Shown here one piece after another: positions 26,646 to 44,229 of a stretch of DNA of 64,000 nt. The notes below the pieces were generated by a model. That model was not told the DNA's origin, did not search any database, and saw only the letters and a program-made list of their open reading frames with translations. Position 1 is the stretch's first letter. Each line of letters starts with the position of its first letter. The position numbers were made by a program, and so were the translations under genes. Source of the stretch: a virus (taxonomy: Duplodnaviria; Caudoviricetes); the IMG/VR virus record IMGVR_UViG_3300021255_002056, positions 21,081-85,080 of that record; one strand, given 5' to 3'.

Positions 26646-28478
26646 CTATTCTCCAGTAGTACCGTCAGCTGCTTTCAGAACGATAGCAGAGTGAGGAAGT
26701 ACTAAAGCACCAGAGCAACGAGTTTCAATCAAATACTTCATCTTGTTGTAGTCGATATCGAAATCGTCGAACAGAGATACTTCGCCACCCTTGTTCATAC
26801 CAACATTGTAGTCGTTCAGATCGAGAGCAACAGCGTAAACATCTTCTGGCATAACGCTAGTCGGAACCTTGACAACACGGTCAACAGACATTGCAGAAGC
26901 AACTTCATTCATGCCTTTGTAAAGTCTCTGACCAATCTTATCTTCCATTAACAGAATGTCAGAAACGATATCAGTCCTAACGAATGCAGTGATGTTACCA
27001 GAACCCTCATAGTCGTCAAGAGACTTAACCATCTGATTAGTAACAGCATGAGCTAATGTTTCATCATCCTTAGGCGTAACGGTATATGCCATTGCATAAA
27101 GATTTTCTTCTGTATCCTTAACAACTGGGATAATGTTTTGTTCATTGATCTTATCAGGATCAGTAGTAGATCTGCCATCACCGAAAATATAAGCACGTGC
27201 CCTTTCTTCATCAAGCTTCATGCGCATTTCTTTCTTGACCCAAGCGATCATATCAATATCAGTGATATCGATGACATCGTCACGGTCAAAGCTCTGAAGC
27301 TTGTAAATAGTTGTCGGATCAACTTTTCTCTTTAAGAGTTTGAAGACTTCTTCGACCTTCTTAGTACCCTTAACATAACCCTTAGCTCTAGCTGTAGCAG
27401 GAGTAATGTCAGCGTGCGTCATCTTGATCTTAGCGAACGGAGTCTTATGCACACCATTGTTGATTACAGAAATCCATCCATTAGGAATAGTGTTTACAAA
27501 CGGAATATCGTTCGAAACATTTCTATATTCCGGTGCCAAATAGTCAAGATGCTCAACACTATGAACAAGAACTTCTTCATTGTTCAGTCCATGAGCTAAT
27601 AAAGATTCCTTAACAGAACCGTATCTCTTTGCATCCTGCAAAGCGCTCATAATTTCAGCAGACATGCCATCGTTTTCGATGACTTCTTCATTGTCAAACG
27701 CGTTATGCTTCATTTCTTTTTCCTCTTCTTCATCATCATTTTCGCCAGCAGAAGCTAAAGCTTCGCCGACAAGGTATTCAGTAACTTTTCTCTGTTCAGG
27801 CGTCATAGAATCTAAAACGTCTTTTACAGTCATATCATCTTTTTTATCAGCCATTTCTTTTTCCTCTCCGTTTTTGTCTGATTCATCAGCAGAATGAGTA
27901 AGTTCTTCTTTTCTTTCAGTTTCTTCTACCGTTTCTTTATCTTTAACTTCCTCTTTTTCTGATTCTTCAGGATCATCTACAACTTCGATTTCATCAGATT
28001 CGTCACTATGCTCGACAATTAAATCTTCGCCAGTATAGATTTCAGCTCCAACAGCTACTGGATCGTCATCAATACTGTGTGCCATCACATATTCAATCGA
28101 TGCTCCAGGATTTGCTCCAGCAAGAACTAAGCTAACTTCTCTAATAACACCATGCAAAACATCACCATTAGGCGTTTGCTTCAATCCATTAGCAAAGATT
28201 GATAAGCTAGCAATGTCACCATGCTGCAAAATAGCTTTAATCCTTTGTGATTTAGGAAGCTCATTGAAATAGCCATACGCTTTTACACCCTCATCGGAGT
28301 TCTTCAATAGCGCATGGCCTAAAATGTTGTCTGGATCATTATGCTGATGATTCCAAACAAGCGGTACGGTAACACCATCACAATCTTTGAACGCATTATG
28401 ACGAATCGTTCTTCCGTCGGAGCATTTTAAATCGTTTCTAGTGGCCCAACCCCAAAAATCGTAATCTTTTTTAGCCAT
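26646..28478 (-). CDS. Prohead protease-scaffold-major capsid fusion (HK97 fold)
   Basis: N-terminal protease (LVWNHQH, ASLSI, EVSLV), acidic linker, C-terminal capsid domain (FDDFDIDYNKMKYLIETR). Confidence 0.88.
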   Translation of the reverse strand: MAKKDYDFWGWATRNDLKCSDGRTIRHNAFKDCDGVTVPLVWNHQHNDPDNILGHALLKNSDEGVKAYGYFNELPKSQRIKAILQHGDIASLSIFANGLKQTPNGDVLHGVIREVSLVLAGANPGASIEYVMAHSIDDDPVAVGAEIYTGEDLIVEHSDESDEIEVVDDPEESEKEEVKDKETVEETERKEELTHSADESDKNGEEKEMADKKDDMTVKDVLDSMTPEQRKVTEYLVGEALASAGENDDEEEEKEMKHNAFDNEEVIENDGMSAEIMSALQDAKRYGSVKESLLAHGLNNEEVLVHSVEHLDYLAPEYRNVSNDIPFVNTIPNGWISVINNGVHKTPFAKIKMTHADITPATARAKGYVKGTKKVEEVFKLLKRKVDPTTIYKLQSFDRDDVIDITDIDMIAWVKKEMRMKLDEERARAYIFGDGRSTTDPDKINEQNIIPVVKDTEENLYAMAYTVTPKDDETLAHAVTNQMVKSLDDYEGSGNITAFVRTDIVSDILLMEDKIGQRLYKGMNEVASAMSVDRVVKVPTSVMPEDVYAVALDLNDYNVGMNKGGEVSLFDDFDIDYNKMKYLIETRCSGALVLPHSAIVLKAADGTTGE

Positions 28479-28499
28479 TTTGAATTTTTACTCCTTTGT

Positions 28500-29798
28500 T
28501 TAAATCTCAGATATTTTTAATTCACCCAAGCTTTGATTTTCATTGCCATTGGATTGCCCTTCACTTTCCTCAGGAACAGTATCTGCGACATTCGGGAAAT
28601 TATCGCCAGTTGCCTGGTTAATGTTCTTATTTCTAAGTTCATTAGCTCTTGGATCGTCTGACGGAAGTAACCCAACTACCTGCCTGAATTCATTAGAAGA
28701 CATAATTTCATTTCTCGTAAACTTATCAGCTAACTCAGCAAGTTTAGATGTTGGCACAAGCTTGAATGGATCCCTAAAGAACGCTATTGACTGATGCTGT
28801 GTAATCGCGGTCTTTGTTAGAAACTTTCGTTTCATTTCATCTGCAATAGCTGAAACAATAGGCTCAATAGTTCGCGAGTAGTAATTGATCATAGTTTGCT
28901 CGTCAGCTGTTCCGTCAAGTATCGCCGTAGTGATTCCTAACTGCCCGTATAAGATGTTTGTCAAGTATTCAATACGTGATAAAAGATCGTTCTCCAACGG
29001 ACGATTCAACTGTGTGATCTTTTCTGTTGCGTCGACATATGCTATACCGTATTTACTTCCGGTAAGCTGCATCTCAATGTCTTTACGACGTTGCTCTGCT
29101 TGCTGCCTTTTTGTTTCAGTTTTAACTAAATAAGGCAACTGAATAATCATATCCAGTTTACCCGATCCGCTTTGTTCATCTACAATGTCCATTAACGTTA
29201 AAGTACGAATTAATCGCTGCAACGTTGAGTTTGGCTCATTCATTATTGAATATAGCGGATTTTCAATGATTGCAACGTTCTTTTTAGCAAACCATAATTC
29301 CTCATGACCGCCAGTTCGATCGTTGTAAACATTGACCTTTACATTGTCGGGAGACCAACCAACGATCTTCCCGACACGTAAAGAGAGTATATCAAAAGAC
29401 CCCTTATCGGGATCTATTGATGTATCGATTGGTACAATTGCTATTGTGCCTTCATCAAACATTGACATAACAATATCTTGAATAAAAGCTCGTCCGGTCT
29501 GATCTTTATTTGCCGAAATTGATAAGCAATCGTTTAATCTTGAATCCATCTTGCTTACAAAGTAGCCATTAGCATCAAGCTTTACATGCTCGAATCTAAT
29601 CTGCGCTACATCCAAAGCAATACGGTTATAGATAGATGTGACTATAGTCCTCTCGTTTCCTCGAGACAATCTATGCCGATATGGATTGTATGATGAATAG
29701 GAAACCTGACCATAATCATACATGTAAGGTTCAGGAGTCGGATCCCTATTCATGAAGGCGTTCCATGCGTGGATTAGCCTATCGCCGAATTTTGGCAT
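28500..29798 (-). CDS. Portal protein (HK97-like)
   Basis: 432 aa; IYNRIALDVAQI, FTRNEIMSSNEFR; directly upstream of the capsid gene. Confidence 0.9.
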   Translation of the reverse strand: MPKFGDRLIHAWNAFMNRDPTPEPYMYDYGQVSYSSYNPYRHRLSRGNERTIVTSIYNRIALDVAQIRFEHVKLDANGYFVSKMDSRLNDCLSISANKDQTGRAFIQDIVMSMFDEGTIAIVPIDTSIDPDKGSFDILSLRVGKIVGWSPDNVKVNVYNDRTGGHEELWFAKKNVAIIENPLYSIMNEPNSTLQRLIRTLTLMDIVDEQSGSGKLDMIIQLPYLVKTETKRQQAEQRRKDIEMQLTGSKYGIAYVDATEKITQLNRPLENDLLSRIEYLTNILYGQLGITTAILDGTADEQTMINYYSRTIEPIVSAIADEMKRKFLTKTAITQHQSIAFFRDPFKLVPTSKLAELADKFTRNEIMSSNEFRQVVGLLPSDDPRANELRNKNINQATGDNFPNVADTVPEESEGQSNGNENQSLGELKISEI

Positions 29799-29823
29799 TT
29801 AGGGCTTACCTCCTCTTAAAAAT

Positions 29824-30234
29824 TTAATTTGTAGAACCTAACTGACTAATTAGAGACTCAATTACTCGCCTCTCACTTTCACTCTTGGCTCCATCCATCA
29901 TAGTGCTCTCAAGTTGAGCAATCATTCTATCTTTTACACTATGACCGCTATAGCCTCTGTCTATTGAATAATCATAAGATCTATCTGGATAATAATCACG
30001 GTATGAATTTCCATTATTCATGTTATTATATCGTCCATAATACCTATTGGATCTCATACTATCCATAGAATATGAAGCATCTGAATCATGTTCTTCCACC
30101 ATTTTGATTTTTTCTAAAAGACAAACTGCTTTCGTTGCCATTTCTAATTCAGCAGGTGTAAGATCATTCTTTGCAGTAATTCTATCAAGCTCTTTTCCGA
30201 CAAGTTTGCTGAGCTTTTCTAATGATTCATCCAT
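29824..30234 (-). CDS. Hypothetical, gene 6 of the Cys-rich module
   Basis: Helical N- and C-termini flanking a Tyr/Ser/Arg-rich low-complexity core. Confidence 0.6.
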   Translation of the reverse strand: MDESLEKLSKLVGKELDRITAKNDLTPAELEMATKAVCLLEKIKMVEEHDSDASYSMDSMRSNRYYGRYNNMNNGNSYRDYYPDRSYDYSIDRGYSGHSVKDRMIAQLESTMMDGAKSESERRVIESLISQLGSTN

Positions 30235-30248
30235 TGTTCCACTCCTCC

Positions 30249-30713
30249 TTATCGGCTAATAACAAGATCTGGCCTCGTTAAAATAATATTAGCGTTTTCA
30301 ACCAATACTGCTTGTGAACTAGTGTTCACAACAGAAACGTTTTCACAGCAGCCATTCCATACTTCAACATTAATAGCTCTACTAACATTGAAATATGCAT
30401 TAGCTTCAGTTGGTGTAACTACCATTTCACTTGCAGGAATAATTGAACCATCAATAGACAACGCTAAAGAAATAGGTTCGACTGTTCCGCCTTCAGGAAT
30501 TGCAATATTTGCACCAAAATCAACTAAATACTGGGCCTCTTGTTTCTTGCAACAGCATCCGCATCTATTCGGTGTCCAGCCACTCAATAAGAAATTTCCA
30601 GAACCATCTCTATGTCGGACGAATCCTCTAGTGCATGGCACTGGTGCGTCTGTAAAAACTACGACTCCTCCTTGAGCGACGGTCTGCGTGGCATTTGCAC
30701 TGTATTCAGCCAT
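30249..30713 (-). CDS. BclA-C/C1q-like all-beta protein, gene 5 of the module
   Basis: Beta-rich 154 aa with CGCCCK and GCCE; pattern resembles the BclA C-terminal jelly-roll. Confidence 0.5.
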   Translation of the reverse strand: MAEYSANATQTVAQGGVVVFTDAPVPCTRGFVRHRDGSGNFLLSGWTPNRCGCCCKKQEAQYLVDFGANIAIPEGGTVEPISLALSIDGSIIPASEMVVTPTEANAYFNVSRAINVEVWNGCCENVSVVNTSSQAVLVENANIILTRPDLVISR

Positions 30714-30723
30714 ATGCCACCTC

Positions 30724-31401
30724 CTAGTTGCAGCCGCAGTTGCCCCAACCAGAATTACAGCAATTTGGATTTGGTACAGTGTAAGCAGGGATCGGTGTAG
30801 GATTCAAATACTGTTCTAACGCCTGAGTCTGAGCAGCATTATTAGCTAAAATCTGAGCTGTCTGAGCATTCTGAGATGCTGCAAGAGCCTGCATATTAAG
30901 CTGAGTCCTAAGCTGAGCAATAGTTTCATTCTTAGCTTCGATTTCCTGCTGGCACATCTTATCAAGAATAGCCTGAGTATTAGCTGTGTTAGACGCAATA
31001 ACATCTCTAAGAGCTTCGGTTAATGCGTTCCTATCCGCACAGTTCTCTGTAGCAACAGTGTATTTAATATCAGCAAGATTAGACGTAATGCCATTTAAAG
31101 CCTGAAGAGTATTCATATTGCCATTGCAACGTGAAACTTCGGCATTAGCAAATCCAGTAGATACAGCTGAAGTGAGACCATTAATACCGCTCATAACTGC
31201 CTGCTGATCAAAACCTTTTTGCATACCGCCATCTCCATATCCTCCGCGACCAAAAGTATTTCCGTTCATCATGAACAGGAATAATACTAAAAGCCACCAA
31301 GCTCCATCACCATTAAATCCAAAACCATTTCCATTGTTACCGCCAGTTACAGCTGCAACATCTGCTGCAGATAAACCAGAACCGTAATCAGTAAGCGCCA
31401 T
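30724..31401 (-). CDS. Gly/Asn-rich membrane-anchored coiled-coil protein, gene 4 of the module
   Basis: GGNNGNGFGFNGDG, hydrophobic AWWLLVLFLFMM, Q/A coiled coil, C-terminal NCCNSGWGNCGCN. Confidence 0.7.
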   Translation of the reverse strand: MALTDYGSGLSAADVAAVTGGNNGNGFGFNGDGAWWLLVLFLFMMNGNTFGRGGYGDGGMQKGFDQQAVMSGINGLTSAVSTGFANAEVSRCNGNMNTLQALNGITSNLADIKYTVATENCADRNALTEALRDVIASNTANTQAILDKMCQQEIEAKNETIAQLRTQLNMQALAASQNAQTAQILANNAAQTQALEQYLNPTPIPAYTVPNPNCCNSGWGNCGCN

Positions 31402-31433
31402 AGTGCGAATTTTACCTCCTTAATAATTATCTT

Positions 31434-32428: not shown

Positions 32429-33436
32429 CTAATTAAAGTGCCCGAACAAATATTGTGCTATTAATTCTGTAGAAGTATGTGTGGAATTTGCGATATTCTT
32501 AATACTTGTTCCAGAATTAAATAACTCTCCTATTTTTTTAATTTGTTCTTTAGTTAATGTGTAACCGCTATATGTCATATCTCTTTCTTTATCTTTATTC
32601 TTATCTTTATTCTTATCTTTATTCTTATCTTTATCTTTATTTTGTTTATTAGTTTCGTATACGTTTATGTCATTTGTTTCTTTATACTTATCATTTAAAG
32701 CTTTCGTTCTGTTATAGTCAGCTTTTTTATTTTCTATATTTGCTAAATTATTCATATACTCCGACTCTTTTTTAGCAGCCGCATACTTATCTTCTGCAGT
32801 GTCTTTTTTAGTCATATTATTAATTGCTGCTTCGATAAGTTTCTTACCAGCATCTTGCATTGCCGGAACAACAACCTTATCCATCATTAACTTGGTAAAC
32901 TGTTCACCTCTTGAAACTGGTTTTGGATCAAGTTCTTTGATTTTATTTCTAACATCAGCAGCATCTTTTTCAAGTTTTAATCTAGCAATATATTTTTCAA
33001 GCTGTTTATCAGTTAATTCTGAAATATTTTTATTTCTTGGCGAACGATTTTTTTCCGTATTAATTTTTGTGTAATCATCAACTTTCTTATTTAGCTGCTT
33101 TTTAGTGTCATTAATATCGTCTACTGTCGCTTTTTCATCAGCAGCTTTAGCCAATTTTCGTGCAGTACTAGTAATTCCCTTCAATTTTGGGGACATGGCA
33201 TTATCGATCGCTTTTCTTTCAGCTCTGGTGGTTTTAATATATTTTCCATCAGCTGCTTTACGATACTTATAAACGCCACTAGATGTCATAATATACTCGC
33301 CAGATGAAAGTTTTCTATAGCGTGCTTTGCCCTCCTCGGTTAAAGAACCATCAGGATTTTGATAGCGTCGTACACCCCATTTTTGACCGAGGATTCCATG
33401 ATGATACAATTCATCTTTTGTCAAATAATACTCCAT
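32429..33436 (-). CDS. Basic protein with HHGILGQKWG N-terminal domain, putative internal virion protein
   Basis: ELYHHGILGQKWGVRRYQNPDGSLT; Lys-rich; KDKN repeats; C-terminal HTH-like GTSIKNIA...STELIAQY. Confidence 0.75.
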   Translation of the reverse strand: MEYYLTKDELYHHGILGQKWGVRRYQNPDGSLTEEGKARYRKLSSGEYIMTSSGVYKYRKAADGKYIKTTRAERKAIDNAMSPKLKGITSTARKLAKAADEKATVDDINDTKKQLNKKVDDYTKINTEKNRSPRNKNISELTDKQLEKYIARLKLEKDAADVRNKIKELDPKPVSRGEQFTKLMMDKVVVPAMQDAGKKLIEAAINNMTKKDTAEDKYAAAKKESEYMNNLANIENKKADYNRTKALNDKYKETNDINVYETNKQNKDKDKNKDKNKDKNKDKERDMTYSGYTLTKEQIKKIGELFNSGTSIKNIANSTHTSTELIAQYLFGHFN

Positions 33437-33451: not shown

Positions 33452-34030
33452 TTACTGATTGCGTTGATGAGAATATTTATCTTCCAAATAATCTGCAAAG
33501 CTGTCCCAACCGGTTTCCCCTCCGTAAAGAACTATAGTATTAACTGCATAGTTGCTATATTCTCTTAATAATGATTGAAGCGAAGAACTATCTTTTGGCG
33601 TAATGGAATCTAATTCCATATCATATTTACGCAAAATAGCATTTATCTTGTCTAGTTTTGCTTGAAGTTTTCTTGTCTTTGAACTTAAACTATTTGCTTT
33701 GATCTCAGCTCTTCTAGCTTTTTCTTCAAGCTTTGCTGCTTTTTCTTTGGATGTAAACAGTCCAGTTTCTTTTTTTCTAAGTTTCGCAGCTTTATTCTCA
33801 AGCTTAGCTATCTTAGTTCCATGCTTTTGTGTTTCTTTATCTATCTCGGATTGTATGTCTTTGGCTTTTTTTACATAATTATCATATTCGCCTCTTAACT
33901 CGGCGTAACGAATTTTGCCTTCTGGAGTTAATGAGCCATCCGGATTCTGATAACGACGAATTCCCCATTTTTGTCCGAGAATTCCATGATGCTCTAAATA
34001 ATCTTGCTTAGTTAAATAATATTCGCTCAT
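33452..34030 (-). CDS. Second HHGILGQKWG-domain protein
   Basis: Start reassigned to MSEYY (GGAGG RBS); YLEHHGILGQKWGIRRYQNPDGSLT followed by a coiled coil. Confidence 0.75.
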   Translation of the reverse strand: MSEYYLTKQDYLEHHGILGQKWGIRRYQNPDGSLTPEGKIRYAELRGEYDNYVKKAKDIQSEIDKETQKHGTKIAKLENKAAKLRKKETGLFTSKEKAAKLEEKARRAEIKANSLSSKTRKLQAKLDKINAILRKYDMELDSITPKDSSSLQSLLREYSNYAVNTIVLYGGETGWDSFADYLEDKYSHQRNQ

Positions 34031-34034
34031 AATA

Positions 34035-34286
34035 TTAGTCCTCCAATAAACTAATAGATAGTTCTTTTCCACCTATAAATTCTTCATATGAAATCATAGT
34101 TGGAGAAAAAACACTTACCCTACCAGTTTTCTTTTCAACTCCAACCAAACTATCCAATTCATTTTCGTTAGGATCGAGACGGTAATCAAACACAAAATAT
34201 GATTCGTATTCAATTAAATTGCACAATGTCAGTCCTTCAGAAAAATCTGATTCTTTCACAATTTTATATGCTTCTTTTAATGTCAT
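34035..34286 (-). CDS. Putative immunity protein (Imm35/YrhB-like)
   Basis: 83 aa, acidic, EYESYFVF...VGVEKKTGRV; directly after a papain-fold gene. Confidence 0.55.
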   Translation of the reverse strand: MTLKEAYKIVKESDFSEGLTLCNLIEYESYFVFDYRLDPNENELDSLVGVEKKTGRVSVFSPTMISYEEFIGGKELSISLLED

Positions 34287-34302: not shown

Positions 34303-36129
34303 TTAATGACGCAATTTTTTAGCATACTCAAGATCATCAACCCAATCCATGTAATCATCAATTTCAGATTGTGCTCCATATGCATCAAGAGTATCTATAA
34401 TTTCTTCGCAAATATCTTCAAGCTCGCTATATGTCATAGACATTTTATTCTTTCCAGCAGGATGCAAAAGTTCATTTTTACTGATTTTGTTTTCTTCCAA
34501 AGCTTTGGTGTAATAGTTATACATATTTAAATAAACCCAAGCAATTTGCTCATTTTTATCAGCTGTATAATTACCATGATCAGCAATATCCGTAGGACAT
34601 GTAACAAATGAAATTCTTTCAGTGTCTACTTCAAGATTATCCGTTCTTAGTAAATAAACTCCTGAAAGACCCGTTTTTTCTTTATTAGTTTTGTCCATGG
34701 CAGTTGTTTTAACCAAATATTCAGTAATGTCTATTTCATGATCAGGGTTGCCAATTCTTTTTTCATCCGGTTGAGTATCAATAAATGTAACTACGCCATT
34801 ATGAACTTCGTAATTAAATATGTGAGCACTAGACGGATACCAGTCAACACTTATAAAACCGGTTGAATCTTTTCCATTAGATTTTTTAAGTATTTTGGAA
34901 ATTAAAGAATCTTTAAGTTTTCCAGCAACTTCGTAATCTTGTTCTTTATTCTTATATGGCTTATAAGTATCATCTAAAGTCTTATAAACATCTGAAAAAT
35001 CTAAATGATCAAATTTTGGAGATGTAAGACCGTTCTTTGTTTTATAAAAACTAGCTATTTCCGAAAGAGGCAATCCTTTAAAAATATTAGGTATAGCTTT
35101 TACGTCAACACCTTTTAAACGCAGATCATAAGCTATTGAACAAGAATAGCAGTTTTTCTGAAAAAGTTCTTTATCTGATCTAAAATAAGGATTTACTGCA
35201 TCTCTACTTTTTTGTATTGAAGTCTTTTCGCTTATAGGCTTAAATACTTTAGATAGATCCTTATTTTTCTCAATAAAGTCATTAAATGAGCTGTTAACGT
35301 TTTTAGCTGCATCATTTGCTTTTTTTATAAAACTATTAATAAAAGAAATACCATTTTTCGTGAATTCTTTTCTTTTATTATTAATTGAGGTTTTGGCATC
35401 GCCTATTTTATTATTAACCGTGTTTTCAATAGCATTCTTAGCATCAGAAATTGCATTCCTAGCATAGTCAGCCATATTTAATACTCTATTTTTTTCTTTA
35501 TTTATTTTTGACGTGACTTTAGATTTTGTATTATCTATTGTGTCATTAACAATTGTGTTGATAGATTTAATTTTTCTATTAACTATATCTTTAGATTTTT
35601 CTACAAAATTTTTACCTTTTTCACTTTTCTTTTTATCAAGTTTTTCAATTTTTTCGCTTTTCTTTTTATCAAGTTTTTTAACTTTTTCTGAATATTTTGT
35701 AAAAGGAACTTTCTTTGAAACTACTTCACTAGACTCATTTTGAGTCTCTTTTTTTCTAGCATTAGTCTTTGGACCAAATGCTTTTCGTTTCTCTGAATTA
35801 TTTGAATCATTTTTATCTTCAGAATTTGTGTCTTTCTGACTAGATGTTTTATATGGTTTGAACAAATTAGCAAATATATTTGTAATACTATTTTTTGCTA
35901 GAACAAATGAACGTTTATTTGTAAAACCAGTTTTTCCTCTGCTATAAGCATCGTATTCAGCTTTCGTATAAAAATACTTGTATTTTGGTTTTGAATCTGA
36001 ACCAAGATTTATTCTCTCATAATATTTATGATGTTCTTTTTTACCGCCTAATTTAATTCCCCAGTGATATAATTCATTTTCCTTATGGATAGCATACTCT
36101 TGATTATGTTTTTCCATAGTGCAGTTCAT
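34303..36129 (-). CDS. Leader-bearing protein with C-terminal papain-fold (Tox-PL-like) domain
   Basis: ELYHWGIK leader; NCYSCSIAYDLRLKGVDVKA, SAHIFNYEV, FIDTQ triad. Confidence 0.72.
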   Translation of the reverse strand: MNCTMEKHNQEYAIHKENELYHWGIKLGGKKEHHKYYERINLGSDSKPKYKYFYTKAEYDAYSRGKTGFTNKRSFVLAKNSITNIFANLFKPYKTSSQKDTNSEDKNDSNNSEKRKAFGPKTNARKKETQNESSEVVSKKVPFTKYSEKVKKLDKKKSEKIEKLDKKKSEKGKNFVEKSKDIVNRKIKSINTIVNDTIDNTKSKVTSKINKEKNRVLNMADYARNAISDAKNAIENTVNNKIGDAKTSINNKRKEFTKNGISFINSFIKKANDAAKNVNSSFNDFIEKNKDLSKVFKPISEKTSIQKSRDAVNPYFRSDKELFQKNCYSCSIAYDLRLKGVDVKAIPNIFKGLPLSEIASFYKTKNGLTSPKFDHLDFSDVYKTLDDTYKPYKNKEQDYEVAGKLKDSLISKILKKSNGKDSTGFISVDWYPSSAHIFNYEVHNGVVTFIDTQPDEKRIGNPDHEIDITEYLVKTTAMDKTNKEKTGLSGVYLLRTDNLEVDTERISFVTCPTDIADHGNYTADKNEQIAWVYLNMYNYYTKALEENKISKNELLHPAGKNKMSMTYSELEDICEEIIDTLDAYGAQSEIDDYMDWVDDLEYAKKLRH

Positions 36130-36132: not shown

Positions 36133-36441
36133 TTAACGTTTTTTGTTTAATAAGTCCCTTAATATATCACTGGTAGGCTTATTATACTTTTTAATTTTTA
36201 TGCTAGTAGTTCTAATTCCATTTAGCAATCTTGCTATGAATCTTTTTCCTTTATATGCAAGTCTATCTGCTCTTTTTTGAATGTCGTCTAACCCATTTTC
36301 TTTATTTGAAGAATCATCGTCTGATAATTTATCTCCATATAAATAATAGGTTTTTCCGTTTTTTACATATTTTGAAATATACTTATGCTTCTTCCATCCA
36401 GATCCTTTTGCCGAATGATATAACTCATATCCCATAAACAC
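36133..36441 (-). CDS. Short leader-bearing protein
   Basis: ELYHSAKGSGWKKHKY resembles the N-terminus of the 608-aa protein. Confidence 0.6.
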   Translation of the reverse strand: MFMGYELYHSAKGSGWKKHKYISKYVKNGKTYYLYGDKLSDDDSSNKENGLDDIQKRADRLAYKGKRFIARLLNGIRTTSIKIKKYNKPTSDILRDLLNKKR

Positions 36442-36447: not shown

Positions 36448-36687
36448 TCAAATAATCTTCTTTCCAGATCTGTATTGGTCTAAAGGAATATCAAATGGAA
36501 AGAACGCTTTGATTTCCTTTGTTGTTTTATTAATAGAAAAACTTCTATTTAAAGGACCTTCATCTTGATGTTTAATTACATAATCATTCGGTATTAAATT
36601 AAACACCAAAATATCGCCATAGTCATAAACCGAATCAATTATGTATGACGGAAAGGCATTATTAATTATTTCCTTGTATTCTTCCAT
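36448..36687 (-). CDS. Putative immunity protein (Imm35/YrhB-like)
   Basis: 79 aa, YDYGDILVF...FSINKTTKEI; overlaps the stop of a papain-fold gene. Confidence 0.55.
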   Translation of the reverse strand: MEEYKEIINNAFPSYIIDSVYDYGDILVFNLIPNDYVIKHQDEGPLNRSFSINKTTKEIKAFFPFDIPLDQYRSGKKII

Positions 36688-37658
36688 GAACTCTTCCTTT
36701 CGTGTTCAATGGCGTTTATGTATTTAATAGATCCATTTTGATAAATCAACAGATAGCATAAACTATTCTGCTTGAGATGAACCTTTATAAAAGTTTTGTA
36801 CCTTGTAACTGCAAAATTGTTTAGTCTAAACTGACTAGCTAAACAGTCTAACGATAGTAACGCATAGTCATTATCCTTTGGGCAAGTTGTGTCGAATAGT
36901 TTATTCTTCACACATTTTAAAATACGTTCGGTAGGCTCTTCGTTATCTGTACGAAAGTAATATAGTCTATTTAAGTAATCATAGTATTCACTTAAATATC
37001 GAATTTTACTATGCTGGCAATCTCTTAAAATTACTCTGCCATTCAATACCTCATAAATTAATGAATGAGCACCACCAAAAGTCCACATTAAACTAATCTG
37101 TCCTCTTGCGTTGTTACCCTGACTAATCAATTCTTCTTCTATATCAGAACAAGAATAATTAGAGGTGCTCATATACCGGTATCCAGGATACTCTTCATCA
37201 AAACGCTTCTGTTTCAACTCTTTGCCATCGTAAAACGGAGCAGAGTTTTTATGTGTCCACCAAGAATAAATCTCAAATATACTATTAATACTAGAATCAA
37301 TATCAGAATTGTTATGATAATCGTCTGCTTCTACGTCAAAACCTCTTCTTCGGAGATCGTACGCTGCAGAACAATAAGCGCAATTAATAGTAAATGCTTG
37401 ATCATCTTTAAGATAAGGATTAACTCGCTGCATATCATCATTCATACTCATTGGAAATTGTTTTCGCTTAAGATCGGATAATTTATCAGGATTATCCTCT
37501 GAAACTTGATTAAGCATTAATTGAATAGAGTTTTTCCAATTGATTAAAATATTTAACTCTTTTAATCCTTTGCCGTTTGCAGTTAATTTCAATCCTCTAT
37601 TAATATTCGCTAAAAGTTTTGACTTACTGCTTTTCGGAGACCTGATAAACTCATTCAT
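36666..37658 (-). CDS. Papain-fold (Tox-PL-like) protein
   Basis: VNP..., NCAYCSAAYDLRRRGFDVEA, GAHSLIYEV, LRDCQ. Confidence 0.72.
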   Translation of the reverse strand: MNEFIRSPKSSKSKLLANINRGLKLTANGKGLKELNILINWKNSIQLMLNQVSEDNPDKLSDLKRKQFPMSMNDDMQRVNPYLKDDQAFTINCAYCSAAYDLRRRGFDVEADDYHNNSDIDSSINSIFEIYSWWTHKNSAPFYDGKELKQKRFDEEYPGYRYMSTSNYSCSDIEEELISQGNNARGQISLMWTFGGAHSLIYEVLNGRVILRDCQHSKIRYLSEYYDYLNRLYYFRTDNEEPTERILKCVKNKLFDTTCPKDNDYALLSLDCLASQFRLNNFAVTRYKTFIKVHLKQNSLCYLLIYQNGSIKYINAIEHERKSSWKNTRK

Positions 37659-37668: not shown

Positions 37669-39432
37669 CTAAAAACTATCTTTGTTATGTTTAAACGCAA
37701 CAAAAGCGTCAAGCATTGCTGCTACGCAGTCTATTTTCTGATCGGAACGTTTCTTATATAACTTCCGGTTTCCATTAGTATCTTCCAAAGTAATACAGTT
37801 GCCCATTGCAAAGTTCATGATTAATTCATCAAATAAAAGAAGCCTCTGTTCAGAAAGCTTCTTTAATTCTCCTAATGGAACAGATTCTGTTCTAGCACCC
37901 TGAATAACTTTTTCAACTCCAAATGGTCCATGCTCTGTTTCCCATCGCTCTACAAATTCTTTTGCATTATACGGGTCAAATCCAAAGCAGTTAACATCAT
38001 AGCCATGAACATCTATAAATCTATCTAGGTCATCATAGACTTCCATCATGTCTAAAATTGTTCCATCCATGATCATCAGGCTGCCTTCTTTGACAAAATC
38101 ATCGTATTTACTCTTAAGCGCTGACGGTAATTTGTCATAAGTAAATGAGCTTATATAGTTTCTAGTCTTTACACCAAAGGCGTCACCTCTAAGTGGGAAC
38201 AAAAATGTAAACGCACAAAAGTCATCACCCTGAGACATATCTGCTCCAAGAGAACACTGCATTTTATCAAATGATCTAAAATGGTGAGGAAGAGTTTCTT
38301 CGTACGGAAAATAATATGTATAACCTTCCAAAGGAATTCCAAATCTCTTAGCCAGAATATCGTTTCTATTTGATGGAGATTTCTCAGCTCGCTCCTTATC
38401 CAACTGGTAGGTTTCATAGCTTACTGTAATACCTAGATTTGGATTCGCTTTAACCCACATAGCAGGATCGTCAACCTCTTCAACAGAATCCAATCTGTAA
38501 TACCAGATCGATACTCTTGGGTTGATGTAATCTCCTTTAAGTATGTCGATTAGCTCCATTTTGATAGTATCACCTGGGCCATTTCGAACTGTACCTTCTG
38601 AAGAAGTAGCAACAATCAAATAGTCGTTTACTTCTTCAATACCACCTTGCTCCTTAGTACAAGACTGCTCAATAGCGCCAATGACGTCTTCCCTTGTATC
38701 TCCAGACAACCATTCATCGACTGTTGCGATCTTAACACGATAACCCTGAAGCTTATCACGGCTCATAGGTTTTACTTCGATCGTAGATCCGGTAATAAAA
38801 TTCTGAATACCTTTCTTAGTAGAGGCAAGCTTTACTCTATCAGCTCTATTACCGGTTGTGTTTTGTAAAGATCCGTAGGTCATGAACTTGAACATAGGTC
38901 CTCTAGATCGATTAATAGCCGTTCGGATCGGAGATAGCACTTCATCAGCTTGAGCCATTGTTGGAGCTGTAACTGTTTGGCCATTAGCACTACGATCACA
39001 GATCAGAAAATATGCCTGAAGAAAAGCTGCATACATAGACTTTGCAGCACCTCTGGCAATAATTAAATATTGTTTTGTAATTAGGCGTTTCTTAAAATAT
39101 TTGCTAACATAGTGGCCTCCTCGTCCGTTAGGATCTGGAACCCATACACTACGTTCAACAAAGTAATACCATCCAAAAATCTGTTCTGACCAAAGCTTAA
39201 ACGACTCAAGCATTTTAACATCGCCACCGTTTGTAAGAGTTAATTCATTCTCACAAAAAGCAACAAAGCCATTCATTGCATCAGGATCATAGTAGACTCC
39301 TGGATTACTAATAAGATCATCGATACGGTTCATCTCCATAGCGATGTACTTATTAATTTTTGTCTCTCCTCTCATTACGGAATCTCTAAATCTACCGTAA
39401 TATATCGGTACGGCAGTATTAGACAACGGCAT
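37669..39432 (-). CDS. terL: Terminase large subunit
   Basis: Walker A IARGAAKS, Walker B ATVDEW, nuclease LGADMSQGDD and KIDCVAAMLDA. Confidence 0.95.
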   Translation of the reverse strand: MPLSNTAVPIYYGRFRDSVMRGETKINKYIAMEMNRIDDLISNPGVYYDPDAMNGFVAFCENELTLTNGGDVKMLESFKLWSEQIFGWYYFVERSVWVPDPNGRGGHYVSKYFKKRLITKQYLIIARGAAKSMYAAFLQAYFLICDRSANGQTVTAPTMAQADEVLSPIRTAINRSRGPMFKFMTYGSLQNTTGNRADRVKLASTKKGIQNFITGSTIEVKPMSRDKLQGYRVKIATVDEWLSGDTREDVIGAIEQSCTKEQGGIEEVNDYLIVATSSEGTVRNGPGDTIKMELIDILKGDYINPRVSIWYYRLDSVEEVDDPAMWVKANPNLGITVSYETYQLDKERAEKSPSNRNDILAKRFGIPLEGYTYYFPYEETLPHHFRSFDKMQCSLGADMSQGDDFCAFTFLFPLRGDAFGVKTRNYISSFTYDKLPSALKSKYDDFVKEGSLMIMDGTILDMMEVYDDLDRFIDVHGYDVNCFGFDPYNAKEFVERWETEHGPFGVEKVIQGARTESVPLGELKKLSEQRLLLFDELIMNFAMGNCITLEDTNGNRKLYKKRSDQKIDCVAAMLDAFVAFKHNKDSF

Positions 39433-39435
39433 TGG

Positions 39436-39795
39436 TTAGATCTCTCCTATCTCTCCAACATAATTTTGTGTAATAAAACCTCTCCACTCCAATTCGTCAA
39501 TAGTTTCTTTTAAAGCTGTTGCTAAAGTGGATGAAGTCGGCGGATCAAAAATAGATTTAGTTTTTAATCCTGCCCAAGTAATGAGAGTTCTTAAATTTAT
39601 CGGCTGACCTTTAATTAAAATATCGGACCACTTAGATGTATTGTCTTTGATTGTGTGAGCTTCATCAGATAAGCCTTCCTGGTAGACAATAAATAGTACT
39701 GCATTAATAGCAATTATTAAATCTCTATCAAAGTCCGTATTTCTTCGATCAATTCCGATTACATCTTTAATCGAATCTAAAATACTTTGATCCAT
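39436..39795 (-). CDS. Head-tail connector (gp6/gp15-like)
   Basis: SILDSIKDVIGI...FDPPTSS...ELEWR; size and position. Confidence 0.6.
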   Translation of the reverse strand: MDQSILDSIKDVIGIDRRNTDFDRDLIIAINAVLFIVYQEGLSDEAHTIKDNTSKWSDILIKGQPINLRTLITWAGLKTKSIFDPPTSSTLATALKETIDELEWRGFITQNYVGEIGEI

Positions 39796-39798
39796 AAT

Positions 39799-40239
39799 CT
39801 ACCTCCTCCAAAGACAGGTATCATTAGGAGAACGGTCCACAAAAGACTTAGTGAAAATATCGTTCTCACTTCCATAGTGTATTAAATTATGTGTATCTAA
39901 TTTTGTGGTGATCAAGTTTTCAGGATCAAATACCATTTGACTTCTTTGTAAAATATCCTCAACAGTGATCGGATTAATGTGATGAATAATTGCATTTTTA
40001 TAGATCTCATATCCTTCACATCCCAAATCACAGCCATTGTCTCTAAGAATAATCTTTCTCTTAACACTTTTCCATTCAAGACAATGGTAAAGTAACTGGT
40101 TCAAATATCTCTCATACCCAAACGTTTCTTTGGCAACACTCCCATGAAGAAGTAAGTATTCTAACCTTTCCTGAAAACTTTTTAGTTTAATTAATTCTGA
40201 ATAACATCTAGAATAGTTCAACATCTTCGTTGTCCTCAT
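39799..40239 (-). CDS. HNH endonuclease, packaging-associated
   Basis: RDNGCDLG, IIHHINP, HNLIHYG; the first ~34 codons of the tracked ORF overlap the upstream gene and are probably spurious. Confidence 0.8.
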   Translation of the reverse strand: MRTTKMLNYSRCYSELIKLKSFQERLEYLLLHGSVAKETFGYERYLNQLLYHCLEWKSVKRKIILRDNGCDLGCEGYEIYKNAIIHHINPITVEDILQRSQMVFDPENLITTKLDTHNLIHYGSENDIFTKSFVDRSPNDTCLWRR

Positions 40240-40564
40240 CACTAGATGAATTTCCAGTATAAATTCCGAATGCTTGCATAGCTGCAGCGAAGAGTTCTTC
40301 GGAATGTTTTGCAGATTGCAATGCTTGAGTTTTAGCAACAAGCAATTCGTTTTCTTTTCTAAGCTTCTCCAGCTCTAATTTGCTTTTTGTTGATCCCAAT
40401 CTGAGAAAGTGGACCAATTCTTGTGATGATGCTGTATGATTACGGATCCTATACTCCACTTCATCTGCTGCAAGAGCTATAAGCTGGTTCTCACGACCCT
40501 CTTCTGTCTCAGCTGGACGTAGTTTTGGTATAGTTTCTTCTACGACTACACGCTTTTTAGCCAT
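40208..40564 (-). CDS. Probable terminase small subunit
   Basis: 118-aa helical protein, first gene of the HNH-connector-terL block. Confidence 0.45.
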   Translation of the reverse strand: MAKKRVVVEETIPKLRPAETEEGRENQLIALAADEVEYRIRNHTASSQELVHFLRLGSTKSKLELEKLRKENELLVAKTQALQSAKHSEELFAAAMQAFGIYTGNSSSDEDNEDVELF

Positions 40565-40619
40565 GATCTCACTTCCTTTCCTATCAGTTCTGTAATAGTT
40601 TTAATATACTTTAGTGTCA

Positions 40620-40726
40620 TTTATGAGGCATTAAATACTTGGAGAGTAGATGCCAAGTCACAAAAACGAAGACACCTCGTGCGAAAGGAGAGTAGAGCCC
40701 TAACACGGTACTTAATACCTCGTAAA
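40620..40726 (-). ncRNA. Candidate structured RNA (three-way junction)
   Basis: 19-bp outer stem (40708-40726 with 40620-40638) plus two inner stems; G-U pairs favour the minus strand. Confidence 0.45.
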
Positions 40727-40783
40727 TAACGCTAAAGAGTACCATGGAAAAGCGATTGGGTTTCCGAAAATATCAGCAAAAAA

Positions 40784-40862
40784 TCCCGCCGGAGAATTTT
40801 TTGAGACCGCCGCGATGCAATAGGGGGTGGGCTTTATAAGAGCCCCCCTCCAGTGCACTGCG
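40784..40862. other. Candidate cos / genome-end region
   Basis: GC-rich island with CGCCGCGAT (40808-40816), GGGCT/AGCCC hairpin and CAGTGCACTG palindrome, upstream of the packaging genes. Confidence 0.4.
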
Positions 40863-40901
40863 AGGCAATAACTAGGTTAAAGATAAAAATGCAATTAAAA
40901 C

Positions 40902-41207
40902 TTAATCATTAAACGATTTGTAATCTTTGTTGATTACTTTTTTGTAAATTCCAAGAAAATCGTTTTCAATTATTTCGTCAATTGCACGTTCAATCTCATC
41001 ATTGTTTAGTTCGTCGCTCAATTGTTCGGATGTTTTCGCGATTCTTGCTAAATAATTGCTTGAACAATAACCTTTTAAATTGTCAAACATAAGCCAATCA
41101 CTGAATTGAGTGAATGGATCATAAGGATTGTCAATTGTTGTTAATGCGAACTTTGCATTGTTTTCAATTGAACTGTTTGCTTTTGCGATTTCTTTTGCAT
41201 TAGCCAT
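40902..41207 (-). CDS. Conserved-looking hypothetical protein
   Basis: ALTTIDNPYDPFTQFSDW...YLARIA; AAAGGAG RBS. Confidence 0.65.
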   Translation of the reverse strand: MANAKEIAKANSSIENNAKFALTTIDNPYDPFTQFSDWLMFDNLKGYCSSNYLARIAKTSEQLSDELNNDEIERAIDEIIENDFLGIYKKVINKDYKSFND

Positions 41208-41232
41208 TTTTCTACAACAATTCTCCTTTCAC

Positions 41233-44229
41233 TCAAGCTTTCAAAGCCTTGGCAATAGTACTTGCTGAAACACCAAGGGCTGCGGCTATTTCGGCATTAG
41301 TCTTTCCACTTTGTGACATTGCTTTTGCTCGGCTCTTCATTGCGTCTGTCATGACTTTTCTTGAACTCGGTGTAGCTCTCTCCCTTAGCTTATCCGTGTC
41401 TGTATGGTCAAGTACTTTTCTTAAAGTATTAGCATGAACTGCACCAGCTTGAATGGCTTCCCAAATGCTATCTGTAATTGTGATTTCATTCCTTTGAGCT
41501 CCTACTCTAGCCCTAGCCTTGGTGAGTTCTACCTGCCTCAGTTTCTTCTTATCTTCCTTCTTAATGTCTGGATTACTCTGTACTTTAGCTTTGAAGTTTA
41601 CTGTAGCTATTACTTGAGCTTGTCTTTCTCTAGGCTTATTCTTAGTTGATAGGTCTAACTGGTTCTCAAGCTCTTGTACCTCATTAGCGTATTTCTTAGC
41701 TGCAGCACTGCTGTATTCAGAACCTTTAGTATCATAACTAAGCTTCCTAGCCTGGTTGGCTAGGCTCTTCATAGTATTAGCATAAGAAGCATAAAGCTGT
41801 TCCATAGGGGAATTACTATCAGATATTAAAGTTCTAGCATCATCTGTTTCAGCCATCTTTGTGCTTGGCTGTGTACGAGTTTTCTCTATTATCTTTACTT
41901 CCCCAGTCTTTTTATTAACCTTCTCTATTGTATACCTAGCTTTAGGATCTTCTTTGTATAGCAATGCTCCTTCAGGTTTAGATGGATCATAATCTGGGCG
42001 ACCCTTAATATTTATTCTTGGCTGGCCTTTTCTTCTTACTACATCTTTCTGAGACTTAGCCATTGAAATAAGAGTTGACGCACCATATACTTCTTTTCCT
42101 TCTTCATCCAGATGAGCTTGATACTTCTTTTTAAGGCGTTCAATCTCATTCTGAGCGTAACTCGATTGGTAATCAAGTTTATGCTTTTCCGCATCAATAA
42201 CAACCATTGAATGACGAACTGCTTTTGCTAATTCATCTTCTGTAGCACCTTTAATGGTCATATCATTGATAAGATTTGAAATACGCCCCATTTCATTTTG
42301 AGTATTCTTCATTACTTTAAATTCGTATCCTGCTTTATTAAAGTAATGCTTATTACCATTCTTATCTTCGTAAGTCTTACTAGGATCGCAGCCATATACT
42401 TCTTTTGGCTCAAATCCTTCTAAGCCTTTCAAAGACTTTCCATTGTTATTCTTGATTCTGATAGTACTGTTTGTCGGAATTACCATAACAGTATCACCAT
42501 CAAAATCAGCTCCAGAAAGCTTTTCTGCAACAGAAGCATTAATACCGACAGCATCTCTTGAGTTCTTGCCGATCATTGCAACACCATCTTTCTGTTTATT
42601 ATTAACAGTTAGAATTGGTATCTCAAATGGTCCACCATGCGGATAACGAATTAACGCGACCTGTTCACCATCTTTATAGTTAGGTGCATAGATTTCATTA
42701 CTTTTCATAGACGGAATAGGTAAAATAACCTGGAACTTCTGTCTTGGTAAAGCCGCTGCCGTTAGGTGAACTGCTGACGAATCACAATCACTTGCAAATG
42801 AGTCTAAGTAATACTTTTTAAGCGTATTATTTTCAAGACTCATAATGTCTTTTAACTCTTCTTGCTTTTCAAGAACAGCTAAATTCAACTGTCTCTTTGC
42901 TAACTGAACTGTTTGTTTAGATAAGAACTGTGCTGAAAGTGTATCCTTCCAGTTGTCCCAGTCACCTTCATCTGCTCTTTTATTAATCAGACTAAGATGC
43001 TGTTTACCATCTTTACCGGTATAATAACTTTGGCCACCCTGTTCTTTATCTTTAATCAAAGAACCGAATGGATTATCTCTATCAATTTCACCAGTAATTT
43101 TGTCTCTCTTGACATCTTTTAAAACATCAAGTTTAGCAACATCCTTATGTTTATTAGTGTTAAATATCACATCAACACCAGGTGGAAATGAATCTTGATC
43201 AATAGCATAAGCTGCCATACCTTTAATATATTTAGTTCCATCGACAAGGATTCGTACCTGAGCATAATTCTTTTCGCCAAGAGAAAGATCATCTACGTTT
43301 CTTCTAAGTTCAACAAGACCATCTTTTTCTTTACCACCATCTTCAGCATATCTAATCATCAATCTACTGGAATCCATGGACTCAGGGAATTCAAATTTCT
43401 TTTTAAATCCATCAATTCCATTGTTAATAGCTTCATAATCTTTAATACCTTTGATGTGACTATACTCATAAAAATCTTTCCAATTCGCATCTGGTGTAGC
43501 AATGACGTTCATTGTTGTTTGTCTTGCACCAGATGGATCGGTAATGTTAGGAACTCTTCCACCAAATGTCTTATAACCTTCGCCTTCCAAAATATAAACT
43601 GCATCATCGAGCTTAGTTCTAGTGACATTGAGTTCGTTCTCGACACCAGGGCCAATATCAATCATGGCTTTTGGATCAGACTTAGCAAGTTCATTAAGAC
43701 GCTCTTTTAAGAAGTCTGCAGTCTTCAAAGATATCTCAATATTTGCTTTTCTAGAAGGTTCTAAAAGTGATCTAACAGATGATTCATTAGGTAAACCCAT
43801 TTTACGAGCAATCTCAGAATATCCATACTTATGTTTTCCATTTTCATCGTATGTATTCCATAAAGCTTCAGCACGATTAATCTTATCCATCTTGTCAAGA
43901 TTAGATGCAAGAGTAATAGCGTGCCTGTATTCTGTAGTGCTCATCTTTAATATCTTTGCTACAGCGGTTTCACCTTTGAATGTTTTGCCATAATCAGGAT
44001 TCTTAATCTTTTCACCATTCTTGATAATGTATTCTTCATTATCTGTATATGTTCGCTTTTCTTTCCTCAGCTGAGTTACGAACGAAAGAAAATCTCCAGA
44101 ATGCTGGAATGGTGTATCTCCAGAGCCCCAAGGATATCTACCAGATCCAGGAGTTCCTTTAATATGGTCAATACCGTAATGCATTAAAAAATCGTCTAAC
44201 GACGGTTTCTCATAAATCATAAATATCAA
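41233..44229 (-). CDS. Single-subunit two-barrel RNA polymerase-like protein (YonO/RdRP-like) with HTH domains
   Basis: KDG...QVR...IKG, IRYPH, LSGADFDGD, MGRISN, VIDAEKH in the expected order; HTH motifs near both termini. Confidence 0.78.
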   Translation of the reverse strand: MIFMIYEKPSLDDFLMHYGIDHIKGTPGSGRYPWGSGDTPFQHSGDFLSFVTQLRKEKRTYTDNEEYIIKNGEKIKNPDYGKTFKGETAVAKILKMSTTEYRHAITLASNLDKMDKINRAEALWNTYDENGKHKYGYSEIARKMGLPNESSVRSLLEPSRKANIEISLKTADFLKERLNELAKSDPKAMIDIGPGVENELNVTRTKLDDAVYILEGEGYKTFGGRVPNITDPSGARQTTMNVIATPDANWKDFYEYSHIKGIKDYEAINNGIDGFKKKFEFPESMDSSRLMIRYAEDGGKEKDGLVELRRNVDDLSLGEKNYAQVRILVDGTKYIKGMAAYAIDQDSFPPGVDVIFNTNKHKDVAKLDVLKDVKRDKITGEIDRDNPFGSLIKDKEQGGQSYYTGKDGKQHLSLINKRADEGDWDNWKDTLSAQFLSKQTVQLAKRQLNLAVLEKQEELKDIMSLENNTLKKYYLDSFASDCDSSAVHLTAAALPRQKFQVILPIPSMKSNEIYAPNYKDGEQVALIRYPHGGPFEIPILTVNNKQKDGVAMIGKNSRDAVGINASVAEKLSGADFDGDTVMVIPTNSTIRIKNNNGKSLKGLEGFEPKEVYGCDPSKTYEDKNGNKHYFNKAGYEFKVMKNTQNEMGRISNLINDMTIKGATEDELAKAVRHSMVVIDAEKHKLDYQSSYAQNEIERLKKKYQAHLDEEGKEVYGASTLISMAKSQKDVVRRKGQPRINIKGRPDYDPSKPEGALLYKEDPKARYTIEKVNKKTGEVKIIEKTRTQPSTKMAETDDARTLISDSNSPMEQLYASYANTMKSLANQARKLSYDTKGSEYSSAAAKKYANEVQELENQLDLSTKNKPRERQAQVIATVNFKAKVQSNPDIKKEDKKKLRQVELTKARARVGAQRNEITITDSIWEAIQAGAVHANTLRKVLDHTDTDKLRERATPSSRKVMTDAMKSRAKAMSQSGKTNAEIAAALGVSASTIAKALKA

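Follow-up and report, generated by a model that had tools for sequence, protein, structure and literature searches.

Hydrophobic-x-His motifs common to a protease-capsid fusion and to N-terminally tagged proteins suggest a candidate cargo-processing system in a lineage of gut and actinobacterial phages

Herpesvirus assemblins and the T4 prohead protease gp21 belong to one fold family, in which a hydrophobic residue is read at position P3 and a defining residue at position P1 of the cleavage site; the assemblin site is (V/L)-x-A, cut before Ser, and that of gp21 is (L/I)-x-E. Portable modules that address enzymes or toxins into an HK97-fold shell are represented by the MuF-fused polymorphic toxins and by the cargo-loading peptides of encapsulins. 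In phage T4 a capsid-targeting sequence is found on the internal proteins IPI-III and on Alt and is processed by gp21 (PMC9958956). The protease gp245 of phage SPN3US cuts at A-x-E with a preference for Ser after the cut, removes short N-terminal propeptides and processes the portal protein, and the sites of phiKZ gp175 and SPN3US gp245 have been given as S/A/G-x-E or A-x-E (PMC10052503). A fusion of protease, scaffold and capsid protein has been described as open reading frame (ORF) 18 of Nocturne116, a c2-like Lactococcus phage, where the cut lies between Arg242 and Ser243 (PDB 9sz9; PMC13595954). Here we analyse a stretch of 64,000 nt (the window, whose positions serve as coordinates throughout) of the 85-kb IMG/VR record IMGVR_UViG_3300021255_002056, derived from a gut phage whose genes in the window all lie on the minus strand. 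It encodes a protease-capsid fusion protein and five proteins with short leaders ending in L-x-H, and we lean, by a modest degree, towards the reading that L-x-H is the recognition and cutting site of a capsid-tethered head protease of assemblin fold, both in the fusion protein and on the cargo.

The fusion protein unites a protease, a spacer or scaffold region and an HK97-fold capsid domain in a single ORF and therefore belongs to the fusion class (Table 1). The original prediction had named five hydrophobic-x-His sites in its spacer, and all of them were found: VMAH↓S (H134), IVEH↓S (H157), ELTH↓S (H195), LLAH↓G (H296) and VLVH↓S (H306), where the arrow marks the presumed cut. Two further sites are EMKH↓N (H258) and SVEH↓L (H310), the latter at the start of the capsid domain, and altogether 14 of the 17 His residues of the protein have L, I, V, M or F at minus two. 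For comparison we used 80 related IMG/VR contigs (relatives are cited by L numbers) with 1139 ORFs, from which 76 fusion proteins were aligned. His is found at H134 in 76/76 sequences, preceded at minus two by I, M, L or F and followed by G or S, and the columns of H157, H258 and H296 hold His in 96%, 89% and 96%, respectively; at one more column 97% of the relatives have His where the window protein has Ser. These five columns, which stand out in a region of little other conservation and are kept in 89-100% of the sequences with L, I, M or V at minus two and G, S, A or N next, are all occupied by His in 61/76 sequences, the exceptions being single sites. No sub-lineage with the P1 residue changed in both spacer and cargo was found among the 76 sequences.

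The composition of the spacer, counted from the end of the protease domain to the N-arm of the capsid protein, points in the same direction. Among 66 relatives, 379 of the 405 spacer His residues (94%) are preceded at minus two by L, I, V, M or F, against a background of 22%, and the next residue is S, A, G or N in 86%. His makes up 0.9% of the capsid domains, four times less than of the spacers, and has a hydrophobic residue at minus two in only 35% of the cases there. Accordingly, L-x-H occurs 182 times in the spacers against 17.7 expected from composition, a ten-fold enrichment, and 5 times in the capsid domains (20388 residues) against 13.6 expected. The last hydrophobic-x-His before the N-arm anchor LFP[DE] lies at a distance of 7 residues in 32 sequences and of 11 residues in 21 (53/73). 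In the full-length AlphaFold2 (AF2) model the ordered protease fold stops at residue 131 and is followed by an acidic disordered stretch (135-216), by helices 218-244 and 272-306 and then by the capsid fold. The order is thus protease, spacer, scaffold-like helices and capsid, and the motif stands at each joint and is scattered in the disordered part.

The protease domain was modelled by AF2 with a predicted local distance difference test score (pLDDT) of 95.2, and by Foldseek its closest solved folds were the assemblins of pseudorabies virus (PRV), Kaposi's sarcoma-associated herpesvirus (KSHV), human cytomegalovirus (HCMV) and Epstein-Barr virus (EBV) (probability 1.00; E from 2.6e-4 to 1e-3; TMq 0.58-0.66). 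Judged from the model, the protease domain has the herpesvirus assemblin fold. The residues H44, S93 and H109 are invariant or nearly so, follow each other in the assemblin order His-Ser-His and are predicted to be the catalytic residues. By analogy to the fold family, L-x-H followed by a small residue would fit the same site logic with a new P1 residue. No PDB entry was retrieved with the sequence of the fusion protein, and a profile search gave a marginal match only, to ORF18 of Nocturne116 (E 0.18). Phrog_3270 and phrog_3244, to which the protease domain was assigned, are both annotated as head maturation protease.

The five L-x-H N-termini listed in the original prediction are all present, on the minus strand. 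They had been ascribed to otherwise unrelated proteins, a description that needs correction, as the first ~30 residues share a longer module, DUF7211 and variants of it, which extends beyond L-x-H. DUF7211 (PF23847) is a 25-position model with a gathering score of 27 bits, and protein A, in which it covers residues 7-26, is borderline with 26.4 bits by hmmscan and 30.1 bits in a six-frame search. The leader of protein A comprises residues 1-12 (33401-33436) and reads MEYYLTKDELYH↓HGILGQKWGVRRYQNPDG; that of protein B comprises residues 1-14 (33989-34030) and ends in YLEH↓HGILGQKWGIRR, with 22-25 bits to DUF7211, which is under the cut-off. The two genes have a 92-nt DNA repeat in common that spans the tag. 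A GGAGG box lies 7 nt before the ATG at 33436 of gene A and another before the ATG at 34030 of gene B, and a GAGGAG box is found 8 nt before the ATG at 36435 of the small tagged protein, so that Shine-Dalgarno sites back these three starts and leaders of 12, 14 and 7 residues. The small protein starts with MGYELYH7↓SAKGSGWKKHKYISKYVKNGKTYY; its 'HKYI' variant of the tag was also found in L012, L013, L040, L046, L085 and L086. The leader of the toxin-like protein ends in ENELYH22↓WGIKLGGKKEHHKYY and that of the RNA polymerase (44179-44229) in DDFLMH↓YGIDHIKGTPGSGRYPWGSGD, the latter matching only positions 3-13 of DUF7211 with 18.2 bits. All tagged proteins of the window are basic, with isoelectric points (pI) of 9-10. 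Gene A also contains, at 32574-32655, five overlapping copies of a repeat with a 12-nt period, which encode a low-complexity (KDKN)n stretch.

The toxin-like protein carries a Gln_amidase domain (PF15644, E 5.6e-7, 31.1 bits against a cut-off of 24.1), that is, a papain-fold glutamine deamidase, and in the relatives L063 and L016 a Gln_amidase domain likewise stands behind a DUF7211 tag. The polymerase matches phrog_4291 with 1083 bits and has weak matches to the Pfam RdRP and helix-turn-helix (HTH) models. As a separate observation, the window contains two papain-fold Gln_amidase genes, in each case with a small acidic ORF behind it (83 aa, pI 4.3, and 79 aa, pI 4.9; 34035-34286, 36448-36687 and 36666-37658, minus strand), an arrangement that looks like toxin-immunity pairing. 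The L-x-H tag is present on the 608-aa Gln_amidase toxin only and is lacking on the 330-aa one, and a Pfam scan of both proteins found no MuF domain.

Enrichment of the motif at N-termini across related phages, proposed earlier as a check, was indeed found and amounts to 3.5-fold: in the 1139 ORFs L-x-H occurs 7.2 times per 1000 residues within the first 35 residues and 2.05 times elsewhere (binomial p ~1e-69, a value that overstates independence because of the kinship among the sequences). The window itself has 11 L-x-H within the first 40 residues of its 79 minus-strand ORFs against 3.6 expected. The consensus of the tag is [DN]-E-L-Y-H↓[HY]-G-[IV]-x-G-[MQ]-K-W-G-V-R-R, the median position of the His being 14, and it corresponds to DUF7211, for which Pfam lists no function; the tags of the relatives score 33-71 bits. 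The polymerase, 'HKYI' and toxin variants match the model partially or not at all, and the toxin tag (…HHKYY) resembles the 'HKYI' module type. A module of the polymerase type, H↓YGxxRxSGRYPWGSG, is found on small proteins as well in L014 and L085, and a module of the type YxxQYYDPxKAHEYY is encoded between the portal and capsid genes of the phages Mudcat and Tanis and also in L056. The acidic L-x-H start is also found on modules without the KWG part and can thus be separated from the remainder of the tag. The genes for tagged proteins lie among those for terminase, portal and capsid protein, and clustering of the 156 tagged proteins by C-terminal part gave 93 groups, with domains including Gln_amidase and, behind a DUF7211 tag in L056 (1248-2144, plus strand), an ADP-ribosyltransferase (Pfam ADPrib_exo_Tox, E 1.3e-6). 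Moreover, polyprotein-like ORFs contain two to three internal DUF7211 modules, each behind its own acidic L-x-H, and in the L037 ORF a DUF7211 module follows a portal-like N-terminal part.

Homologues of the fusion protein and of the polymerase were each found in ~250 phage records; those of the fusion protein are in 244 records, many of them labelled 'major capsid and protease fusion protein'. Among them are the records of Lactococcus phage 1706 and its relatives, of Faecalibacterium phage FP_oengus and of phages of Arthrobacter, Gordonia, Streptomyces, Microbacterium, Curtobacterium and Rhodococcus, and the group that holds them has been described as a Firmicutes-Actinobacteria phage supercluster (bioRxiv 10.1101/842583). 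In FP_oengus, MT835495, 1706, Mudcat, Tanis and ReqiPoco6 the polymerase retains L-x-H↓YG with SGRYPWGSG behind it. In these six and ReqiPepy6 the motif is on the polymerase (where this gene was examined) and also on one to seven genes around terminase and portal, so that L-x-H is kept from phages of Lactococcus and gut Clostridia to those of Arthrobacter, Gordonia and Rhodococcus, that is, across phages of Firmicutes and Actinobacteria.

In bacterial genomes the tag and the fusion protease occur together. One genome per species was searched with a DNA pattern in which H-x-G-[IV]-x-G-M-K-W-G-V-R was the sole requirement, and this returned at least 120 stretches, mostly from gut Clostridia. In 92 hits, the position at minus two from the His, left free by the pattern, held L 83 times, I 6 times, V twice and F once. 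The fusion was encoded within the 8-kb tag-bearing locus in 31/80 loci and elsewhere in the genome in 38/45 of the remaining tag-bearing genomes (E ≤ 1e-24), so that 69/76 tag-bearing genomes have it, compared with 0/150 sampled genomes of the same order, among which at most one had a weak tag match. The exact pattern was also seen in metagenome bins labelled Burkholderiaceae, Kiritimatiellae, Bryobacteraceae, Bacteroidales and Succinivibrionaceae (L095, L101, L103, L123, L131), which reflects either contamination by phage contigs during binning or a host range beyond Firmicutes and Actinobacteria.

A location in the virion is suggested by phage 1706, where the tagged orf7 and the polymerase homologue orf75 were deposited as 'structural protein' (EU081845). 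The records of ReqiPoco6 and ReqiPepy6 repeat this labelling of 1706. The label reportedly goes back to virion mass spectrometry by Garneau and co-workers in 2008. For the polymerase, these labels point indirectly to packaging in the virion, as in the strategy of the N4, crAss-like and phiKZ types. The orf7 product (L214, EU081845 2501-3889) also contains the internal motifs DNILLH183↓KG, DKSLAH310↓SF and ELHH342↓GF with acidic residues before them and, judging from these motifs, may be cut into several pieces. Two small 'structural proteins' of 1706 from the early/replication region, orf62 (L214, 45052-45330) and orf71 (L215, 159-512), have no L-x-H leader; if they are head-internal, the tag is not used by all cargo of 1706.

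L-x-H is common to the spacer of the fusion and to the cargo tags, and it is therefore probable that the tagged RNA polymerase, toxin-like enzyme and small basic proteins enter the head, are trimmed by the protease and are injected. In the mechanism that we infer, with cleavage after His, loading driven by the tag and injection, Leu would occupy P3 and His P1 of the cut site. The sites in the fusion would serve to release the protease, to digest the spacer or scaffold and to free the N-arm of the capsid protein. A portable N-terminal tag, consisting of an acidic leader, L-x-H and GxxGxKWGxRR or a variant thereof, would be placed on a changing set of basic proteins and carry them into the procapsid, where the many capsid-tethered proteases would take off the short acidic leader. 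The mature basic proteins would remain with the DNA and then be injected. If cut after His, mature orf75 of 1706 would start with YGTKRHSGRYPWG.

Several observations weigh against this mechanism. To our knowledge, His is an unusual residue at the cutting position of a protease. Hydrophobic-x-His is found in the folded protease domain too, as three conserved motifs with a small residue next, and in a tail-chaperone-like protein, so that the motif alone does not mean a cut. No spacer site is docked on the protease in the full-length AF2 model, and with a disordered spacer and no docked site this model is uninformative on binding. As the compared sequences share kinship, the counts are not independent events. 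The residue after His is bulky in the cargo (H, Y, W or F, then Gly), whereas the spacer sites have a small one (S, A, G or N) in its place, so that the two classes may be handled differently. Leaders can be as short as 4-7 residues (MDELYH, MGYELYH), which makes it unlikely that the piece before the His is by itself a targeting sequence of the T4 kind, and the best-kept part of the tag, GxxGxKWGxRRYQNxDG, follows the presumed cut, a conservation that a pure 'leader' model does not predict. The original prediction of a His-specific cargo system is thus partly supported, by the conserved sites in the spacer, including both domain boundaries, and at the N-termini of basic proteins, by the co-occurrence and by the 1706 labels, and is weakened with regard to the leader before the His as a T4-like targeting sequence. 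It had also been offered as the explanation of the HHGILGQKWG motif, which it explains only by half, since the part downstream of the presumed cut would stay on the mature protein. Because the piece before the His is often too short, addressing is more likely to depend on the GxxGxKWGxRR part or on the site being bound by the protease while this is still inactive.

In an alternative reading the motif would serve for docking without cutting, with hydrophobic-x-His and the DUF7211 stretch binding to the inner face of the capsid protein, to the scaffold helices or to the still-inactive protease. We consider this unlikely, though the strongest conservation after the His, the leaders of 4-7 residues and the different residue after the His in cargo and spacer all speak for it, and both the co-occurrence with the fusion and the virion location in 1706 fit it equally well. 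The cargo would then copy a scaffold contact motif, much like an encapsulin peptide, and would be uncut in the virion, a version to which we give the same low credence. However, the invariant sites are located where the protease fold ends and immediately ahead of the N-arm, points at which the polyprotein must be severed (compare Nocturne116; PMC13595954), the multiple sites in the disordered acidic spacer follow the pattern of scaffold digestion in T4 and SPN3US, and polyprotein-like ORFs with tags inside them are best understood as being cut. It appears less probable still that DUF7211 is a domain with a function of its own, exerted in the cytoplasm or after injection, for instance in the binding of nucleic acid or envelope, and that the likeness of L-x-H arises from sequence habits of the lineage. 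The tag is basic and rich in W, G and R and is followed by a conserved YQNxDGSLT, as such a domain might be, and Pfam assigns it no function; in our literature search no paper with 'DUF7211' or the motif strings was found, phrases for a capsid-protease fusion led to genome announcements only, and neither the tag nor a His-specific head protease was the subject of any paper found, nor was there any Arthrobacter phage proteomics, many journals being outside the coverage of the search. Such a domain does not account for L-x-H at the head of modules lacking the KWG part, for the way in which the tag tracks the fusion protease (69/76 against 0/150 controls), for the position of the tagged genes among the terminase, portal and capsid genes or for the tagged homologues of 1706 that are virion proteins by the annotation of the depositors. 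Chance or composition, to which we assign a negligible probability, could be invoked for so short a motif, the more so as the 11 N-terminal hits of the window include obvious non-members; it was rejected on the L-x-H counts at N-termini, in spacers and in capsid domains, with their 3.5-fold and ten-fold enrichments and the depletion in the capsid domains, and on the conservation of the motif across phyla.

Returning to cleavage by the capsid-tethered protease, a wider reading can be formulated with more reserve. It is possible, at slightly less than even confidence, that a His-cutting protease of assemblin fold is found throughout the lineage and that the ~25-residue tag is both address label and release site for an exchangeable injected arsenal, a double role that is proposed because the protease is tethered to every capsid subunit. 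The arsenal might comprise the phage's own RNA polymerase, glutamine-deamidase and ADP-ribosyltransferase toxins and basic DNA-associated proteins, which we put forward tentatively, being not quite persuaded of it. The lineage might extend over 1706, FP_oengus, prophages of gut Clostridia and the phage clusters of Arthrobacter, Gordonia, Streptomyces and Rhodococcus, a range for which we would hesitate to claim even balance.

The portal is a possible further substrate, as 42 portals encoded on the related contigs have R-L-x-H↓[AGS]-W-N-A-F in their N-terminus; the motif is absent in Mudcat and Tanis, and FP_oengus has Arg for His. The coordinates of the features are collected in Table 1.

Table 1. 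Features of the window and polyprotein-like ORFs of relatives; the arrow marks the presumed cut.
Feature	Coordinates	Strand	Remarks
Protease-capsid fusion	26646-28478	minus	phrog_3270; Pfam Phage_capsid
Protease domain, residues 1-134	28077..28478	minus	end at VMAH134↓S; phrog_3270 E 1.6e-179; phrog_3244
Spacer/scaffold-like region, residues 135-306	27561..28076	minus	sites H157, H195, H258, H296, H306
HK97-type major capsid domain, residues 307-610 and stop codon	26646..27560	minus	Pfam Phage_capsid E 2.5e-8, residues 380-602
Portal	28500..29798	minus	N-terminal MPKFGDRLIH10↓AWNAF; Pfam Phage_portal E 4e-19
Tagged basic protein A, 335 aa, pI 9.5	32429..33436	minus	KDELYH↓HG; DUF7211; phrog_32444
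Tagged basic coiled-coil protein B, 192 aa, pI 9.3	33452..34030	minus	QDYLEH↓HG; phrog_32444 E 6.9e-14
Tagged toxin-like protein, 608 aa, pI 9.1	34303..36129	minus	ENELYH↓WG; Gln_amidase domain, residues 326-454
Small tagged basic protein, 100 aa from ATG 36435, pI 10.0	36133..36435/36441	minus	GYELYH↓SA; 'HKYI' tag variant
Large terminase	37669-39432	minus	
Two-barrel (YonO/RdRP-like) RNA polymerase, 998 aa	41233..44229	minus	DDFLMH↓YG; C-terminal HTH
Polyprotein-like ORF of L053	1325-4252		
Polyprotein-like ORF of L039	1338-2234		
Polyprotein-like ORF of L071	7518-8543		
Polyprotein-like ORF of L037	1536-3326		

Two observations concern the tail genes. A product of 180 aa (24238-24780, minus strand), encoded between the genes for the major tail protein and the tape measure, has L-x-L-E-H↓S-L-V-S-I-S-K-W-E near residue 30, kept in 54 ORFs of the related contigs. 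As a cleavage site the L-x-L-E-H↓S of this tail-chaperone-like protein was set aside, because it lies inside the chain of a tail protein and belongs to a conserved domain. In the tail-fibre region, many diverged repeats of 44-50 nt, spaced ~69-84 nt apart, lie at 2700-5050 inside a gene for 1035 aa (2377-5484), and from this spacing the gene product would be a protein of 23-28-residue repeats.

If the proposed role of L-x-H is true, the widespread DUF7211 would obtain a role and a head-protease specificity with His at the cut position, which is not described for phages in the literature searched, would be added. The route into the host of the two-barrel RNA polymerase, a hallmark of the supercluster, would be explained, which bears on the start of transcription in these phages, and the injected proteome, toxins included, would become predictable from sequence in hundreds of isolates and in many gut prophages. 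Moreover, a natural and transferable short tag would be at hand to load foreign proteins into the HK97-fold heads of cultivable siphoviruses such as 1706, Mudcat and Tanis.

Among the systems described so far, the giant myoviruses phiKZ and SPN3US also use one protease motif, found in the capsid protein and in the portal as well as in many internal ejection proteins, and an RNA polymerase is among their internal head proteins. Some of their propeptides are short, with 20-24 residues, and are cut at several sites; in contrast to the system described here, the protease is separate and specific for Glu, most propeptides are long and there is no tag like DUF7211. The herpesvirus assemblin of UL26 resembles the phage protease in its fold and in being the N-terminal domain of a polyprotein with the scaffold, which in UL26 excises itself, whereas its P1 residue is Ala, the capsid protein is outside its polyprotein and no cargo tags are known. 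ORF18 of Nocturne116 has the same order of protease, scaffold and HK97-fold capsid, and its mature capsid protein starts at the scaffold-capsid junction; unlike the fusion of the window, it is cut after Arg, the sequence similarity is marginal (E 0.18) and no tagged cargo has been described there. The proteins analysed here differ from MuF toxins by having no MuF domain and from encapsulin cargo, the peptides of which are C-terminal and uncut.

The system can likewise be compared with that of T4. In both cases short N-terminal leaders are found on basic proteins, those of T4 being non-essential, injected head proteins, and the leader ends in a hydrophobic-x-residue site that recurs in the capsid or scaffold precursor, here at the level of sequence. 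As with T4 Alt, an ADP-ribosyltransferase is among the tagged proteins, in the relative L056. Unlike in T4, His and not Glu is at the cut position, there is no sequence similarity, either to the T4 leaders or otherwise, the protease is fused to the capsid protein, while that of T4 is a separate core component from a different protease family, conservation in the tag is found behind the site instead of ahead of it, and an RNA polymerase is among the cargo. The system described here would work like that of T4 and like the head maturation of phiKZ and SPN3US; with these differences it is not a member of the T4 system.

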